Origin: Kiritimatiellia bacterium
Lineage (GTDB): Bacteria; Verrucomicrobiota; Kiritimatiellia; RFP12; UBA1067
Direction: 5' to 3'
DNA length: 44,113 bases
NCBI GenBank assembly: GCA_017646325.1
Contig: JAGCMU010000061.1
Coordinates: 1-44,113 of the forward strand
Shown: positions 16,029-21,375 of the stretch, piece after piece
How positions within the stretch are numbered: the stretch's first letter is position 1
Layout of the letters: every line of letters begins with the position of its first letter
Notes under the pieces: model-generated
Databases searched by the model: none
The model's input: the letters and a program-made list of their open reading frames with translations, nothing else
Told to the model about the DNA's origin: nothing
Position numbers and translations under genes: made by a program

Positions 16029-16043
16029 TTAAAACTTCTTCAC

Positions 16044-16072
16044 TTGAAGATTTTGCCGTAAAATAGTATACT
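16044..16072 (+). promoter_or_regulatory. Sigma70-type promoter of grpE-dnaJ-rsmE
   Basis: TTGAAG-17bp-TATACT. Confidence 0.6.
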
Positions 16073-16120
16073 TAATAATTCAAATTTTCACTTTTTAAAA
16101 AAAGAGAAATAGGATTTAAA

Positions 16121-17900: not shown

Positions 17901-18614
17901 ATGCATCGCCTTTTTGAAACTGCGCTTGAAGATGTTGTGACGCTTTCAAAAGAAGCGTCGCATCATTTAAGTGTAGTTCGTCCTAAAAACGGAGAAGAAA
18001 TAGAACTCTTTGACGGTAAAGGGCGAGTGCGCACATATAAGGTAGAATCGCAAAAAGCGCCTTTAGTTGCAACGGGCGAAGTTCGAAATGTCGAGCGTCA
18101 AAAAACTGAAATAACTCTTTTCGCCTGCGTTACGAAGGGGTCGCGTTGGGATTGGACTATTGAAAAAGCTGTCGAACTTGGAGCGACGCGAATAGTGCCG
18201 GTGATTTCCGATCGCTCCATCGTCCGCTTGGCGGCGAATGAGCGTCCAGCAAAGGCTGAAAGGTGGCGTCGTGTCGCGTTGGATGCCGCAAGGCAAAGCG
18301 ATGCTGCATGGCTTCCGGAAATTGTTGAAGCCGTCGATTTTGAAGATTCGCTTAAGATCGTGAAAGATTGCGACGTGGTTTTTACCGGAGCTTTGACGAA
18401 TCCGCCGCCTAAATCATTCCTTGATGAATTAAATGCACAAAAAGATTTATCTTCAGTCGGTGTGTTCGTAGGTCCAGAAGGGGATTTTACTCCGCAAGAA
18501 ATGGAAGCTCTCTTGTCTTGTACTATCCCTGTTACATTCGGTCCGACAATCCTGAGGGCGGAGACGGCGGCAATATTTGCACTAAGCGTACTCTCCGCAT
18601 TTTTCCGCAAATAA
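17901..18614 (+). CDS. rsmE: 16S rRNA m3U1498 methyltransferase
   Basis: EKAVELG, VGPEGDFT and ILRAETAA motifs. Confidence 0.95.
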   Translation: MHRLFETALEDVVTLSKEASHHLSVVRPKNGEEIELFDGKGRVRTYKVESQKAPLVATGEVRNVERQKTEITLFACVTKGSRWDWTIEKAVELGATRIVPVISDRSIVRLAANERPAKAERWRRVALDAARQSDAAWLPEIVEAVDFEDSLKIVKDCDVVFTGALTNPPPKSFLDELNAQKDLSSVGVFVGPEGDFTPQEMEALLSCTIPVTFGPTILRAETAAIFALSVLSAFFRK

Positions 18615-18620
18615 AAAGAT

Positions 18621-18652
18621 AAAAAAAGACCAGCAAACGCTGGCCTTTTTTT
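18621..18652. terminator. Bidirectional intrinsic terminator
   Basis: A7-GACCAGC-aaac-GCTGGCC-T7; pairs fully (with one G-U) on the minus strand. Confidence 0.8.
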
Positions 18653-18659
18653 GCGGATC

Positions 18660-18878
18660 GTATTGAATTCAACCTCACCGCCTCAGTCGCGCAAGGCAAC
18701 TGAAATTTTACTTTCCAAACAGATTTTTCTTTTTCGCCCACCTCGACGTGTCGCTCGCTGTCATGCGGAAAAGTCGTAATGTTTGTTACGAGACCGTCGG
18801 CTAATGTGCTTAATTAAGGAAAACCTTGTTTTTCCAGTTTCTAAGAGCCTGCCTAAACAAGCTCTACCGAATTCATAC
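18660..18878 (-). ncRNA. Stand-alone structured non-coding RNA of unknown family (~220 nt)
   Basis: Own promoter and terminator; 5'/3' closing stem GUAUGAAUUCGG / UUGAAUUCAAUAC; four internal hairpins; G-U pairs form on the minus strand only; no credible ORF. Confidence 0.65.
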
Positions 18879-18882
18879 AACT

Positions 18883-18911
18883 ATACTAACAAAAAAAATG
18901 GTGATGCGCAA
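18883..18911 (-). promoter_or_regulatory. Sigma70-type promoter of the ncRNA candidate
   Basis: Minus-strand TTGCGC(18911-18906)-17bp-TAGTAT(18888-18883), overlapping an alternative TATAGT. Confidence 0.55.
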
Positions 18912-18931
18912 GTGTTCTGCAGAAAAATATT

Positions 18932-19684
18932 TTAAATTTCCTTATGCTTTTCCGCAGGCGTGTCAGGAGCGAAAATCACGTGAGACTGGATGATTGCAAG
19001 AACTGCAAAGATTGCCATTAAAAGTTCTCCGCCTTCTTCTATTGCCGTGAAAAGGGCGGTGACAGCACCAGAAGAAGCGTCAAGCAATTCCGGAGTAAAA
19101 AGGTTTGCCTTGCGGCATGTTTTCGTAAGCCCGTCACACGCCTGAGACATAACGCCAGAGATGCCGAAGAATGCGACAGACCATGCAACAGGGTGCATTT
19201 TGAAAAAGCCTTTGAAAAGTTTTTTGAAGTAAAATACGAGAGGTGTCAGAACGGCAAATCCAAAGAGAATAAAGAATGCAATCACGAACAGTTTCGGCAT
19301 GAAAGGAATGTCGGGAGATGTTAAAAAGCGCATTTTGAAAACAGTGCCTTTAAATGTGATTTCAGGCCAAATCATGCTGAACCATTGCTTGTGCCAGTCA
19401 AGCTGGCGTACGAGTGCCATAAAGCCGAGAAGGGAGAAGATGGAAGAGAAAAATATTTTTTTCTTCATCGAGCCGCTTACCGGGCAGCATAACCATGCAA
19501 GAGGAATAATCATTGCAAATACTGGAAGAGTTAAAATCTCGACTAATGAATGTCCGTCGTTGTCAAATGAGATGATCAAAGTTCTTGGATCTATTGTGAG
19601 CCAACAGAACACAAAACTTACGATGCCGATGAAGAAGATTATTGGTGCAATCACCCACGAGTTTTTTGATGATAATAAGTTCAT
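18932..19684 (-). CDS. Hypothetical multi-pass membrane protein
   Basis: Probable ATG at 19684 after AAGGA (the listed ORF's upstream part overlaps the ligase gene); about six TM helices; RQLDWH and EEGGEL motifs. Confidence 0.75.
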   Translation of the reverse strand: MNLLSSKNSWVIAPIIFFIGIVSFVFCWLTIDPRTLIISFDNDGHSLVEILTLPVFAMIIPLAWLCCPVSGSMKKKIFFSSIFSLLGFMALVRQLDWHKQWFSMIWPEITFKGTVFKMRFLTSPDIPFMPKLFVIAFFILFGFAVLTPLVFYFKKLFKGFFKMHPVAWSVAFFGISGVMSQACDGLTKTCRKANLFTPELLDASSGAVTALFTAIEEGGELLMAIFAVLAIIQSHVIFAPDTPAEKHKEI

Positions 19685-19698
19685 ATTTGTTATCCTTT

Positions 19699-21375
19699 TT
19701 ATTTTTCGTCTAAAGTACCTTTGTATTCTCCACGACGGATTTTTTGTGTAGAAGTTCTCAAGAGAGGAGTTTTTGAAATAACGACTTTTCTGACGCGCTT
19801 GTAGTCGGCCATATTGTGACATCTTGCCTGTACGCGTTCTTTTGTGATTTTTTCGATATCCTCCCAGCTTGGAAGATTTCCGTTCGTTTCTTCTTTCAAC
19901 ACTTCAAGATTAGGGCAAACAATACAGCCTACTTTTTCTCCGGGCAAATCACCTGTCGTATATCCAACTACGATACAATCGGAAACGAAAAGATCTTCTG
20001 CGATATAGTTTTCCACTTCTTCAGGATAGATGTTTTTGCCTTCGCGGTTTACGATGAGGGCTTTTTTTCTTCCGCGTATTGTGATGTAACCATCATCGTC
20101 AATCGTAGCCAAGTCGCCGGTCATAAACCATTCGCCGTCAAAAGTTGCTGCGGTCGCCTCGTCGTTTTTCCAATATCCCTTCATAGTGATAGGGCCTTTA
20201 ACCTGCAACTCTCCAATTCCGTTTTCGTTGGGATTGTCAATGCGTACATCAATGCCCGGGATTTTCTTTCCGATAGTTCCGACTTTTCCTGATTGGGCAC
20301 CGGAAATAGAAACGATTGGAGCACATTCCGTAAGACCATACCCTTCAATCATTTTTATTCCAAACTTGTTAAAGCCATTAATGATGTGTAACGGGCATGG
20401 AGCGCCGCCAACTAACATGAAGCGGATATTGCCGCCAAGAGATGAGGTGAGCTTTTTCTGAACGAGAGATTTTAAACCACAGGCTATGAGCAGTTTCGCC
20501 AGTTTTGAAGAGTTGATTTTCTTTTCAATTTTTTCGTAGAACTTTTCCGCCATGAGCGGTACGCACATGATGACAGACGGTTTTAGATTGCGTGTGTCTT
20601 CGGCGACCGTGTAGAGAGATCTGACGAAATAAAGCGCGCTTGCCATTTGGAGAGCGACAACAAAATTTGCCGTGAATGAGAAGGCGTGGAAGAGGGGAAG
20701 TACAACCAAGAATGAATCTCGCTCATCAACATCGGCTTCAAATCCTTCAATAGAGCCTTTTGCATCTTCAATGAAGTTTTTATGCGTGAGCATCGCGCCT
20801 TTTGGCTTGCCCGTAGTTCCCGATGTGTAGAGAATGGACGCTATGTCGTCTTCTTTCGCCACATTCTGGGAGTACCAGGAAGTTTCGGTTTCTTTAAATT
20901 GCTCATAAAAGGCTTCATACGAATATACTTTTACATTACCGATTTGCTTCAAATCCTCTTCTTTTACGGCTCCAATCAAAACGAGAGAACGGACAGACGG
21001 AAGGTTTGGTAAAATATTGCGCATCATTTCAAGGTGAGCAACATCTGTTGTGACGATTGTCGCTTGAGAGTTTGATATTATCCAATGCGCTTCCTCGTCG
21101 TGAAGCTTTGGATCTACCGTTACAACGCCTACACCCGCGCCGCTGCAAGAAAGATAAGAGGTTACCCATTCAGGATTGTTGGGGAGAATCAACGCGACGT
21201 TTTCTTCTCGCGGTTTTGCCCCTAAAACCGTTCCGTAAGCCTGGGCGATTATGTGGACATTTTTCAAGAATTGGGCATAAGAGCAAGTTTGCCATCGCTC
21301 GTTTTTGAAAAATTTTAAAGCAACAGCATCGGGATGCGTTTTTGCACTGTTTTCTAAAAGAGTACGAATTGTCAT
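19699..21375 (-). CDS. Long-chain fatty acid-CoA ligase (AMP-binding)
   Basis: YTSGTTGKPKG, EGYGLTE, WFMTGDL and GKNIYPEEVE motifs. Confidence 0.92.
   Translation of the reverse strand: MTIRTLLENSAKTHPDAVALKFFKNERWQTCSYAQFLKNVHIIAQAYGTVLGAKPREENVALILPNNPEWVTSYLSCSGAGVGVVTVDPKLHDEEAHWIISNSQATIVTTDVAHLEMMRNILPNLPSVRSLVLIGAVKEEDLKQIGNVKVYSYEAFYEQFKETETSWYSQNVAKEDDIASILYTSGTTGKPKGAMLTHKNFIEDAKGSIEGFEADVDERDSFLVVLPLFHAFSFTANFVVALQMASALYFVRSLYTVAEDTRNLKPSVIMCVPLMAEKFYEKIEKKINSSKLAKLLIACGLKSLVQKKLTSSLGGNIRFMLVGGAPCPLHIINGFNKFGIKMIEGYGLTECAPIVSISGAQSGKVGTIGKKIPGIDVRIDNPNENGIGELQVKGPITMKGYWKNDEATAATFDGEWFMTGDLATIDDDGYITIRGRKKALIVNREGKNIYPEEVENYIAEDLFVSDCIVVGYTTGDLPGEKVGCIVCPNLEVLKEETNGNLPSWEDIEKITKERVQARCHNMADYKRVRKVVISKTPLLRTSTQKIRRGEYKGTLDEK

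Follow-up and report, generated by a model that had tools for sequence, protein, structure and literature searches.

A gap without genes in a contig of an uncultured gut bacterium of the Kiritimatiellia raises the question of what is encoded on its minus strand at positions 18621-18911 of the window, the whole stretch of 44,113 nt that was analysed. An initial annotation had proposed a stand-alone, lineage-specific structured RNA, possibly undescribed, at this place. On comparative sequence evidence, the locus is a real and presumably independently transcribed non-coding RNA gene of an uncatalogued family, separate from the genes around it. As to its function, the best explanation as a whole, to which we assign a probability of roughly 0.5, is a genuine ncRNA gene of a new family whose product would act in trans through a fold that binds a protein or ligand.

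Transcription unit in the window

Transcription would run leftwards from the sequence TTGCGC-17-TAGTAT, with a predicted start at about 18876-18874, and would stop at a bidirectional terminator common to the RNA and rsmE (Table 1). All strings quoted in the initial annotation were found on the minus strand at their positions, among them this promoter and, at 18652-18621, the hairpin with U-tract named as the terminator. The promoter geometry had been likened to that of grpE, where TTGAAG-17-TATACT was indeed found. On the plus strand the terminator was called at 18630..18643 and also ends rsmE, the last gene of a grpE-dnaJ-rsmE row. Apart from frames running into rsmE antisense, no open reading frame of at least 40 amino acids was present inside the unit, in agreement with the claim that it contains no credible ORF, and no gene follows the RNA on the same strand. 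The predicted length is ~250-255 nt with the terminator, and the conserved domain comprises ~176 nt; a discrete RNA unit is thus retained from the initial annotation, but its size of ~220 nt has to be revised to ~255 nt.

Table 1. Features of the RNA locus and of the two adjacent genes, in window positions.
Feature	Position	Strand	Basis
-35 element TTGCGC	18906..18911	-	sequence; generic sigma-70 scan without a call
-10 element TAGTAT, 17-nt spacer after -35	18883..18888	-	sequence
Conserved 5' domain, match to family model R3	18700..18875	-	80.9 bits, E 4.5e-15
P1, long hairpin with UUC/GAA extension	18839..18871	-	both-side changes, 35-sequence alignment
5' strands of outer helices P2-P4, closing the central domain	18803..18838	-	model alignment
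Three-way junction core P5/P6/P7	18744..18800	-	highest conservation in the family
3' purine-rich strands of P2-P4	18710..18742	-	model alignment
Hairpin UCAGUUGC-loop-GCGACUGA	18683..18703	-	sequence and fold; outside the conserved domain
3' strand UUGAAUUCAAUAC of the terminal stem, complementary to 18878-18867	18660..18672	-	sequence, minimum-energy fold
Intrinsic terminator: A-tract, GC stem, U-tract	18621..18652	-	terminator scan, 14 pairs
Upstream membrane-protein gene, no Pfam family	18932..19822	-	stop 20 nt before -35
rsmE, 16S rRNA methyltransferase family, convergent	17901..18614	+	Pfam Methyltrans_RNA 2.5e-42

Taken alone, the sequence of the window rejects chance only weakly; the real support comes from homologues. 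A generic sigma-70 scan of 18000-19500 returned no site, and the pattern TTGC-N18-20-TAnnnT matched 26 times in the window as compared to 22.2 expected matches, hence this generic promoter pattern is not enriched. Folding of the 271-nt version of the RNA, which includes the terminator, gave z = -4.05, and none of 200 shuffled sequences folded as well; z was -2.99 for the plus strand of the same unit. The core alone (228 nt) reached z = -2.0, which is not exceptional, as 6 of 200 shuffles were as good.

Homologues in related genomes

Homologues were sought by sequence, by synteny and by structure. A BLAST search of 40 relatives with the 301-nt unit returned only the unit itself. Synteny of rsmE was followed at 80 loci in genome contigs and 80 in metagenome contigs, with protein identities of at most 62-64%; at the 80 loci in genome contigs nhmmer found nothing, the best blastn match had an E-value of 1.2, and other frames directly follow rsmE. 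The RNA sequence alone served as the seed of a covariance model, which after two rounds of refinement (model R3) was searched against 150 genomes of the same Kiritimatiellia family. One copy per genome was found in 39 of them, distributed over genus g16 (26 of 33 genomes), g17 (11 of 13), g10 (one of two) and the genome of the window itself, that is, over four of the 27 genera of the family. E-values from this custom model are rough, and with ~17 candidates scored per genome the narrow distribution may be an underestimate. A strict core-motif scan independently landed on the same places, and among 319 genomes of the order and 401 of the phylum it found the motif only in g10, g16 and g17. The carriers related to the organism of the window are gut and rumen bacteria, and their loci have 47-72% G+C as compared to 45% in the window. 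Searches of phages, plasmids and viral contigs gave no match; with no such copies and one match per genome, the RNA does not resemble those of phages or mobile elements.

As an observation in its own right, these relatives escaped BLAST, nhmmer and synteny and were reached with a covariance model started from one sequence and iterated twice. Homologues with covariation, named in the initial annotation as a check on its proposal, came to light in this way and not by BLAST or nhmmer.

Each of the 28 loci inspected has TTGC(G/A)-17/18-TAnnnT just upstream of the conserved 5' end of the RNA, so that the promoter form noted in the window recurs in all of them. The spacing between TTGC(G/A) and the 5' end of the RNA is constant in all 28, the -10 position has (TG)nTAnAnT, and GAAAUUC follows ~7 nt later; the 5' end itself reads GAAUUC or GAAAUUC throughout. 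The genes upstream, which include GFO_IDH, radical SAM, RecO and Y_phosphatase3, are not related from one locus to the next, and some are divergent; the RNA therefore needs a promoter of its own. In relatives, the RNA is followed by terminator hairpins that show covariation (alignment columns 258-299).

These data also decide whether the locus could be the 3' untranslated region of the upstream membrane-protein operon, with a structure due to chance and no function of its own. The RNA starts ~55 nt past the upstream stop codon with no terminator between, and the folding z of the core is only -2.0, as such a tail would lead one to expect. This reading is nevertheless refuted: the homologues lie behind unrelated, sometimes divergent genes and have the same promoter, covariation is far above controls, and homologues of the upstream gene occur in relatives without such a tail. 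The latter were found in 94 of 120 other genomes of the family, where the RNA is not adjacent. At membrane-protein loci with downstream sequence, long open frames start within tens of bases of the stop codon, which leaves no gap comparable to that of the window, a rough comparison since GC-rich DNA gives spurious frames.

Additionally, parts of the 44,113-nt stretch occurred in 20 of the 22 listed sequencing runs, mostly from bovine or other gut metagenomes. Runs X9, X10 and X14 contained short identical pieces only and are therefore not informative. The RNA-library run X15 yielded one contig of 1414 nt over 18100-19280 with 146 differences, which represents a relative ~12% diverged with the same gene order; the 40 differences listed all lie at or below 18572, and there is no indel between 18619 and 18916. 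Within 18600-18940, X15 keeps a fraction of 0.29 of the 31-letter words as compared to ~0.02 expected at 12% evenly spread divergence, which would speak for selection on the DNA of the RNA locus. As both convergent genes are likewise on the contig, it may stem from DNA or from read-through and is no proof of transcription of the RNA.

Fold and covariation

The conserved domain was aligned with 34 homologues, giving 35 sequences in total. Its fold consists of the long hairpin P1 and a closed multi-helix domain that ends in a three-way junction with invariant bases. In the sequence-only alignment, 29 of 59 pairs showed changes on both sides, and the covariation score was 0.329 as compared to at most 0.134 with slid partners. 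In the model-fitted alignment, the corresponding values were 38 of 59 pairs and 0.415 as compared to at most 0.110. None of 500 shuffles reached the observed score in either case. RNAalifold applied to a MAFFT alignment returned 64 pairs, and compensatory changes were present in 35 of these. A conserved structured RNA of an uncatalogued family is thus real almost beyond doubt.

P1 pairs 18865-18857 with 18844-18852, and its extension UUC/GAA pairs 18871-18869 with 18839-18841; 13 of 16 pairs of the helix show both-side changes in the 35 sequences, and the extension is invariant. The helix AGAGCUUGU/GGCAGGCUCU of the initial annotation is part of P1 and is kept in relatives through compensatory changes. 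The long-range helix P2 closes the central domain, which narrows through P3 and P4 to the junction of P5, P6 and P7; the partners of 18803-18838 lie at 18710-18742. In the model alignment, helices 2-5 have both-side changes in 14 of 14 pairs, several of which are mismatched in G000. P5 pairs 18800-18792 with 18744-18752, contains a bulged A and shows both-side changes in six of 12 pairs, P6 is a hairpin at 18791-18774 in which g17 swaps CGUAA/UUACG for CGAUU/AAUCG, and P7 is a hairpin at 18773-18753 whose loop contains an invariant UGAC. Two further helices of the initial annotation belong here and are likewise backed by compensatory changes in relatives, namely CGACG-GUC/GAC-A-CGUCG in P5 and UCGUAA/UUACGA in P6. 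The invariant bases are GUUAGC between P4 and P5, CUCUUCUG and UGAC in the 5' strand and loop of P7, and GAGGCG after P5.

Other pairings seen in the window do not extend to the family. The terminal stem GUAUGAAUUCGG/UUGAAUUCAAUAC, thought to join the ends of the RNA, is present in the minimum-energy fold of the window, but the relatives inspected, including other genera, have no conserved 3' partner for it. The local hairpin GGAAAA/UUUUCC is replaced in the family model, where the pyrimidine strand has a 3' purine strand as its partner. The suggested pseudoknot CUUUUCC/GGAAAG found no support in relatives; CUUUUCC is the 5' strand of P7. The hairpin UCAGUUGC/GCGACUGA exists in the window but is not part of the conserved domain; its place is taken in g16 by a GNRA hairpin of 8 bp that covaries (columns 205-235), and g17 has none. 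The A/U-rich stretch before it stands where relatives have a run of six or seven U, and in g16 and g17 P2 lies directly 5' of this run.

A search for extra covarying pairings returned only invariant candidates, GUUA/UGAC and the 5' GAAA with the U-run. As these elements never vary, a tertiary pairing of GUUA with UGAC has no covariation behind it, and no pseudoknot is demonstrated. Three g16 genomes (G086, G113 and G063) have GAUA at the place of GUUA without a compensating change in the P7 loop.

Comparison with known RNA families

The RNA family is absent from Rfam 15. A scan of the whole window gave no match, so that the covariance-model check proposed in the initial annotation left the RNA without a family. 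At 18500-19050 there were only terminator-type matches below threshold, the best being Thr_leader with 26 bits as compared to a threshold of 55. Nine homologous loci produced one irrelevant match (E 0.78), and the best match of one g16 RNA scanned alone was TLS-PK3 (22 bits as compared to 80). Together with the covarying homologues in four genera, these results bear out the notion of a lineage-specific, possibly undescribed RNA. Large motif catalogues (e.g. PMC11109978, PMC8632094) could carry it under another name in their supplements.

The initial annotation had set the RNA apart from RNase P RNA, tmRNA, SRP RNA and 6S RNA, and none of these models matches at the locus. In the genome of the window, RF00010 (RNase P RNA) matches contig C73 with 198.3 bits and RF00013 (6S RNA) matches C76 with 40.7 bits, as compared to a cut-off of 46.4. 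RF00013 also matches other loci in all five g16 genomes; tmRNA was located elsewhere in four of these five, and ARAGORN detected none in the window. The RNA is similar to 6S RNA in being single-copy, stand-alone, presumably abundant and of similar length, yet its consensus is multi-branched and not a rod with a central bubble.

SRP RNA occurs in essentially every bacterial genome, and a strongly diverged universal RNA of this kind would likewise be a single-copy structured RNA with a strong conserved promoter. Models of SRP RNA (RF00169, RF01854) are blank in these genomes: the small SRP model matched in none of five g16 genomes and in one of 121 genomes of the order, a search that scored 30 candidates out of hundreds in each genome, and the large model in none of five. 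Five g16 genomes also lack a convincing canonical domain IV motif. Despite these gaps, identity with SRP RNA is extremely improbable. The domain IV hairpin (AGG-stem-GNRA-stem-AGCAG) is missing from the RNA, whose GNRA hairpins are plain helices and differ from the canonical form seen in G206. Four of 27 genera, and none elsewhere among the 319 order and 401 phylum genomes, is far too narrow a distribution for a universal RNA; 6S RNA, tmRNA and RNase P RNA are accounted for at other loci, and the miss by the SRP models is probably a limit of the tool. Pattern scans for SRP RNA with guessed 4-bp and corrected 3-bp stems gave no more matches than controls, and the lone self-complementary match, L264, belonged to no SRP family in the Rfam scan.

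Retron RNAs carry a UAGC motif. No reverse-transcriptase Pfam family was found among 131 flanking frames of 35 loci, which does not fit a retron.

The raiA motif RNA occurs in Firmicutes and Actinobacteria. Three-way-junction riboswitches such as those for TPP, purines and THF have invariant bases in junction and loop, a closing helix and a terminator, and the RNA described here shares these features, with a gene close behind in g16. The raiA RNA, an orphan structured bacterial ncRNA (PMC10861870), resembles the present RNA in an elaborate conserved fold of ~200 nt with invariant bases in junctions and GNRA loops, often in a separate unit that is independent of any single downstream gene; it differs in being listed in Rfam and in its helix layout. 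Our RNA matches no such family and is confined to four genera among the genomes searched.

Gene context and possible modes of action

Neighbouring genes differ between genera. At 35 loci, the downstream gene encodes a HAD hydrolase on the same strand (10 loci), an SDR on the same strand (five) or a convergent HTH-cupin regulator (eight), and the rest are diverse. The next gene is convergent in eight of 11 g17 loci, a layout like that of the window with rsmE. In g16, a same-strand gene lies close behind the terminator at 15 of 22 loci.

As the mechanism, we favor an RNA that would act in trans, compactly folded, and bind a protein or small ligand via its invariant junction core; the variable 3' hairpins and the terminator would mainly serve 3'-end formation and stability. 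We put such a trans-acting binder slightly below even odds; no conserved neighbouring gene points to a partner protein or ligand. Probably, the RNA is neither an Hfq-type base-pairing sRNA nor a CsrA sponge nor a dedicated leader of one gene.

The main rival is a riboswitch-like leader, in which the junction domain would bind a metabolite and set read-through past the terminator. In g16, read-through would reach a HAD phosphatase or an ACP-like ORF with an SDR; in the window and g17 it would proceed antisense into the convergent gene, and the RNA ending at the terminator may have a role in trans as well. We regard such a leader, in general and in these details, as rather unlikely, although several features speak for it. 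The core is aptamer-like, with ~75 nt, a three-way junction, invariant bases in the junction strands and one loop, and a candidate loop-junction pairing GUUA/UGAC. A terminator always follows, and in g16 and g17 the covariation-backed P2 is directly succeeded by the U6-7 run. In g16, HAD genes start 76-113 nt after the model match at 10 loci and SDR operons follow at five. At least two loci, G115 and G101, have only ~10-25 nt with a Shine-Dalgarno sequence between U-tract and start codon; a separate promoter could not be accommodated there, which speaks rather for a leader.

Against the leader stand the genes themselves: HAD, ACP/SDR, SecA and others are functionally incoherent, so that the conserved aptamer-like structure with invariant junction bases is not found as leader of functionally related genes at the 35 loci. 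The next gene is convergent in most g17 loci and in the window, and six of 11 HAD-type loci read have their own TGnTATAAT-like -10 element between terminator and start codon. In g16, the core and the terminator are set apart by one or two extra hairpins, and an antiterminator pairing was not found. From the three-way-junction riboswitches named above, the RNA thus differs in its lack of a coherent regulon, in the convergent or absent gene in the window and g17, in the extra hairpins before the terminator and in the lack of an Rfam riboswitch match. The initial annotation had called a cis riboswitch unlikely as no same-strand gene follows; this holds for the window and the convergent g17 loci, but not for the 15 g16 loci with a gene close behind.

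In Listeria, the SreA and SreB RNAs go back to known SAM riboswitches. An RNA that resembles a terminated leader and possibly works in trans, as these do, would reconcile the layout in g16 with that in the window and g17. The junction domain would then be a ligand sensor, be it the aptamer of a novel riboswitch class or of some other kind, kept as a free-standing terminated RNA that acts in cis in g16 and in trans or by antisense read-through elsewhere; we consider this, too, a minor possibility of about the same weight as the leader.

Alternatively, the 5' GAAA, the UGAC of the P7 loop and the U-run could pair with mRNAs and alter their translation or stability. Such a base-pairing sRNA is improbable. 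Its size, the stand-alone promoter-to-terminator unit and the narrow lineage distribution are typical of sRNAs, and the internal U-rich stretch with terminator is like sRNA 3' modules, but Hfq (PF17209) was found in none of five carrier genomes (93-97% completeness), and the conserved bases lie mostly in or beside helices and not in a long single-stranded seed. CsrA (PF02599) was likewise found in none of five carrier genomes at least 93% complete, and the stretch rich in GGA is paired, as the 3' strand of P3. A self-cleaving or other catalytic RNA of an undescribed class is very improbable: in its compact junction, its invariant unpaired bases and a candidate pseudoknot the RNA looks like small ribozymes, but it matches no Rfam ribozyme, is a single copy with promoter and terminator and no obvious substrate or processing role, and no conserved cleavage-site context was recognised.

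Significance

The Kiritimatiellia of gut and rumen are abundant and have hardly been cultured; to our knowledge, no regulatory RNAs have been described from them, and a record-level search found no literature joining Kiritimatiellia with sRNA. The locus provides a new family of RNAs whose fold is well supported and whose promoter is defined; with about 40 members, it suffices for submission to Rfam and for a start of biochemistry. Furthermore, two iterations of a covariance model from a single sequence recovered relatives that had escaped sequence search and synteny. Our best guess for the function is a trans-acting binder of a protein or ligand, with the riboswitch-like leader as its main rival. 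Should the core sense a ligand, the phylum, for which few riboswitches are known, would gain a further class of them; if the RNA has a protein partner, it would point to a ribonucleoprotein new in these organisms.

The transcription unit and its surroundings

The minus-strand sequence quoted for 18621-18911 in the initial annotation is present in the window. Approximately 225 nt without a credible ORF separate the -10 element from the terminator. A generic sigma-70 scan of 18000-19500 called no promoter, and the -35 element is identical to TTGACA in three of six letters. A promoter-like site of comparable geometry, TTGAAG-17-TATACT, was found upstream of grpE (16029-16120), as had been remarked for that gene. 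The 271-nt unit folds with an energy of -85.3 kcal/mol (z = -4.05; none of 200 shuffled sequences was as good), the opposite strand yields z = -2.99, and the 228-nt core devoid of the terminator yields z = -2.0, with six of 200 shuffles as good. Taken by itself, the window sequence provides modest evidence for an RNA gene.

Coordinates of the predicted RNA gene and neighboring features in the window
Feature	Position	Strand	Remark
-35 element	18911-18906	minus	TTGCGC
-10 element	18888-18883	minus	TAGTAT, 17 nt after the -35 element
Match to covariance model R3 (conserved 5' domain)	18700-18875	minus	80.9 bits
Hairpin of the 3' part	18703-18683	minus	followed by a tail
Terminator hairpin with flanking A-/U-tracts	18652-18621	minus	reported on both strands by the terminator scan
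rsmE, convergent	17901-18614	plus	ended by the same bidirectional terminator as the RNA
Upstream gene, membrane protein without Pfam family	18932-19822	minus	ORF stop at 18932
AMP-binding gene	19699-21375	minus	overlapped by the membrane-protein frame (124 nt)

Alignments of the 296-aa membrane-protein frame with its homologues begin only at about residue 37-50; translation therefore probably starts at the Met at residue 46 (MNLLSSK...), which would give a protein of ~251 aa. The window has a G+C content of 45% as compared to 47-72% in 80 related rsmE loci, hence the genome is AT-rich for its family. It is small (1.40 Mb, 121 contigs, 63.5% complete), and its genus has no second species among the genomes searched; in the rsmE comparison, its proteins reached at most 62-64% identity to the nearest public relatives.

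Conservation in a close relative

Of the 22 public sequencing runs listed, 20 contain part of the stretch. They are for the most part metagenomes of bovine or other guts and stem from 11 studies; perhaps four of the runs are the source of the assembly. One RNA-library run, the gut metatranscriptome X15, contains a 1414-nt contig over 18100-19280 with 146 differences and four gaps (~12% divergence) and the gene order of the window, rsmE / RNA / membrane protein. Insertions in this contig are located at 18612, 18618, and 18917 only, none of them inside the RNA. Of the 31-letter words sampled from 18600-18940, X15 retains a fraction of 0.29, compared to ~0.02 expected for evenly spread divergence of 12%; thus, the intergenic RNA has long unchanged blocks. 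In this relative, the RNA region appears to have changed less than the coding DNA on either side. The contig spans both convergent genes as well, so it gives no sign of transcription of the RNA on its own. The X15 relative is absent from the genome collections searched; it would be the best sequence for a covariation test close to the genome of the window.

Distribution of the RNA

A BLAST search of 40 relatives with the unit as query returned the unit alone. Of 120 other genomes of the family, 94 encode homologues of the upstream membrane protein; behind these homologues, the RNA is absent and other frames adjoin directly. Relatives of rsmE in public genomes and metagenomes are at most 62-64% identical, are labelled Kiritimatiellae/Kiritimatiellia, Lentisphaerae, or Verrucomicrobia, and originate from assemblies of rumen, gut, and faeces; nhmmer and blastn detected no trace of the RNA in 80 rsmE genome loci.

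Successive covariance models were used for searching. R1, made from the single RNA sequence of the window with its predicted fold, was run on 149 other genomes of the family and returned a single weak full-length match (G051, 23 bits), which showed the promoter form of the window and a strikingly similar central stretch. With the two-sequence model R2, 30 of 150 genomes were matched at E≤1, 28 of them at E≤1.7e-4. R3, derived by aligning these 28 sequences with MAFFT, matched 39 of 150 family genomes, each of them once, with misses possible as the search scored ~17 candidates per genome. The matches comprised 26/33 genomes of genus g16, 11/13 of g17, one of two of g10 (24 bits), and the genome of the window; genus g20 gave none in 46 genomes. 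A strict core motif (GTTARC, 20-50 nt, CTCTTCTGYTGA), scanned exactly in all 319 genomes of the order, was found in 26 genomes of g16, g17, and g10 and in three unrelated-looking matches; its reversed control gave two matches. In a sample of 401 phylum genomes, it was confined to g10, g16, and g17 plus two stray matches. The RNA of the window departs from this strict motif. Phage records, plasmid records, and viral contigs contained no match. Altogether, the RNA occurs in 4 of the 27 genera of the family.

Fold and covariation

All 28 first-collected loci carry TTGC(G/A) at -35, followed after 17-18 nt by (TG)nTAnAnT; the conserved RNA 5' end GAAAUUC (GAAUUC in the window) lies ~7 nt past the -10 element. 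The family fold comprises helices P1 to P7. P1 is a long hairpin flanked by invariant UUC/GAA and capped in most members by a GNRA loop. The long-range helix P2 alternates between GCCG/CGGY and GUCG/CGAC in g16 and consists of the 8-bp CUGUGCAA/UUGCGCAG in g17; in P3 and P4, a pyrimidine strand pairs with a 3' purine-rich strand. P5 has nine pairs and a bulged A, and the hairpins P6 and P7 branch off it. P6 is kept as CGUAA/UUACG within g16 and the window, and g17 swaps the whole helix to CGAUU/AAUCG.

RNAalifold predicted 64 pairs, 35 with compensatory changes, from the MAFFT alignment, which was fitted to no model. In a sequence-only alignment of 26 distinct rows, 29 of 59 pairs showed changes on both sides, 91.2% of cells were paired, and covariation was 0.329 versus 0.134 for the best slid partner; the respective values for the model-fitted alignment of 35 sequences were 38 of 59, 90.5%, and 0.415 versus 0.110. 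None of 500 shuffles reached the covariation of either alignment. These figures represent strong support and not probabilities, because the model-fitted alignment is biased towards structure and the sequences are related. The multi-helix RNA is thus supported by covariation, and the chance that it has no function is considered negligible.

Invariant bases are GUUAGC between P4 and P5, CUCUUCUG and the loop UGAC in P7, and GAGGCG after P5. That the RNA is a ribozyme appears very improbable. A scan for further pairings yielded invariant candidates only (GUUA with the P7 loop UGAC, 5' GAAA with the U-run), without covariation, and three g16 genomes (G086, G113, G063) have GAUA for GUUA without a compensating change in the P7 loop; we therefore regard a pseudoknot as possible. 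A U6-7 run follows P2 in g16 and g17, with AAAAUUUC at this place in the window. Ahead of the terminator, the 3' part contains two small hairpins with GNRA loops in g16 and one hairpin in the window; in g17, the terminator follows almost directly.

Mapping the family model onto the window recovered the initially proposed helices now named P1, P5, and P6; it lends no support to a GGAAAA/UUUUCC hairpin or a CUUUUCC/GGAAAG pseudoknot. The long terminal stem proposed along with them has no counterpart in relatives and uses the tail found in the window together with bases at or before the likely start.

Neighboring genes

From 35 loci, 131 flanking frames were translated and scanned against Pfam. 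Upstream genes are unrelated among loci (OEP, S41 peptidase, MFS, rhamnosidase, aldolase, RecO, radical SAM, GFO_IDH, and others), and several are divergent from the RNA, which thus needs its own promoter. Downstream, g17 has a convergent HTH_3-Cupin_2 regulator (eight loci) and the window has convergent rsmE. Reverse transcriptase, Cas, and transposase families were not found among these frames. One locus with a convergent HTH-cupin gene (L297, genome G096) contains a short tandem repeat of about four copies of a 7-nt unit between this gene and the RNA terminator, ~60-95 nt after the R3 match.

The layout in g16 keeps alive a serious rival, namely that the RNA is a riboswitch-like leader: a HAD hydrolase gene (10 loci) or an SDR gene (five loci) follows in the orientation of the RNA. 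In two g16 genomes (G115, L269; G101, L278), an ACP-like ORF (MQEFL...WGSLT...) with a good Shine-Dalgarno sequence starts ~10-25 nt past the terminator U-tract, leaving no room for a separate promoter; the genes seem to depend on read-through from the promoter of the RNA. In six of 11 HAD-type loci read, a TGnTATAAT-like -10 element lies between terminator and start codon. Given also the convergent layouts, we consider the leader unlikely overall. The ACP-like ORF is followed by SDR, related loci in G113 and G086 add a PglD_N-type acetyltransferase, and together the genes resemble an operon for the modification of sugars or lipids.

Known RNAs and RNA-binding partners

No Rfam 15 family reached its gathering score on the whole 44,113-nt window. 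A permissive scan of 18500-19050 gave 14 weak matches, the best being leader/sRNA models aligned to the terminator (top match Thr_leader, 26 bits versus a threshold of 55), and neither tRNA nor tmRNA was detected in the window by ARAGORN. Literature searches returned nothing joining Kiritimatiell* with sRNA, nothing on structured-RNA terms mentioning Kiritimatiell*, and, for the taxon with Rfam, unrelated titles (at title level); large motif catalogues might hold the RNA as an unnamed entry.

The RNase P RNA of the same genome is located on contig C73 (198.3 bits), and a probable 6S RNA on contig C76 (1858-2009, L002; 40.7 bits, just below the 46.4 cut-off); failure to find tmRNA and small SRP RNA carries little weight at 63.5% completeness. 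Five g16 genomes (90-97% complete) all contain 6S RNA, three over the cut-off, and four contain tmRNA over the cut-off; the Rfam small and large SRP models matched in none of the five. A diverged universal RNA is regarded as highly improbable. In the window genome and these five (L233-L237), 6S RNA starts a few bases past the stop of an upstream ORF (ending ...VRDN/VRDS) and is therefore probably co-transcribed with it.

The SRP survey covered G051, G015, G080, G117, G063, and 121 other genomes of the order; the small SRP model gave one partial match in 121 genomes, in G206 (G206:C31:2540-2574 = L253:1501-1535), with a canonical domain IV. Scans of the five g16 genomes with exact domain IV patterns revealed no convincing site. 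We rejected the idea that our RNA is the missing SRP RNA, since no hairpin resembling domain IV is present in it and its genera are so few (4/27). The SRP miss more likely reflects a limit of the pre-filtered search; otherwise, this family would have an unusual SRP RNA.

Hfq and CsrA were found in none of five carrier genomes at 93-97% completeness, and a base-pairing sRNA is considered improbable.

The initial observation is confirmed, and its interpretation as a lineage-specific structured RNA, possibly undescribed, is supported by covarying homologues in few genera. The RNA is encoded by a conserved single-copy gene with its own predicted promoter and terminator, has no Rfam 15 match, and is confined, among the genomes searched, to few genera of one gut/rumen Kiritimatiellia family; it is a new RNA family of the general kind of orphan structured bacterial ncRNAs. 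No neighbor is constant, the gene layout is convergent in the window and g17, the fold is elaborate with invariant bases in its junction, and Hfq and CsrA were not found; together, these points favor, at a probability of about 0.45, an RNA that would act in trans, bound to a protein or a small ligand.
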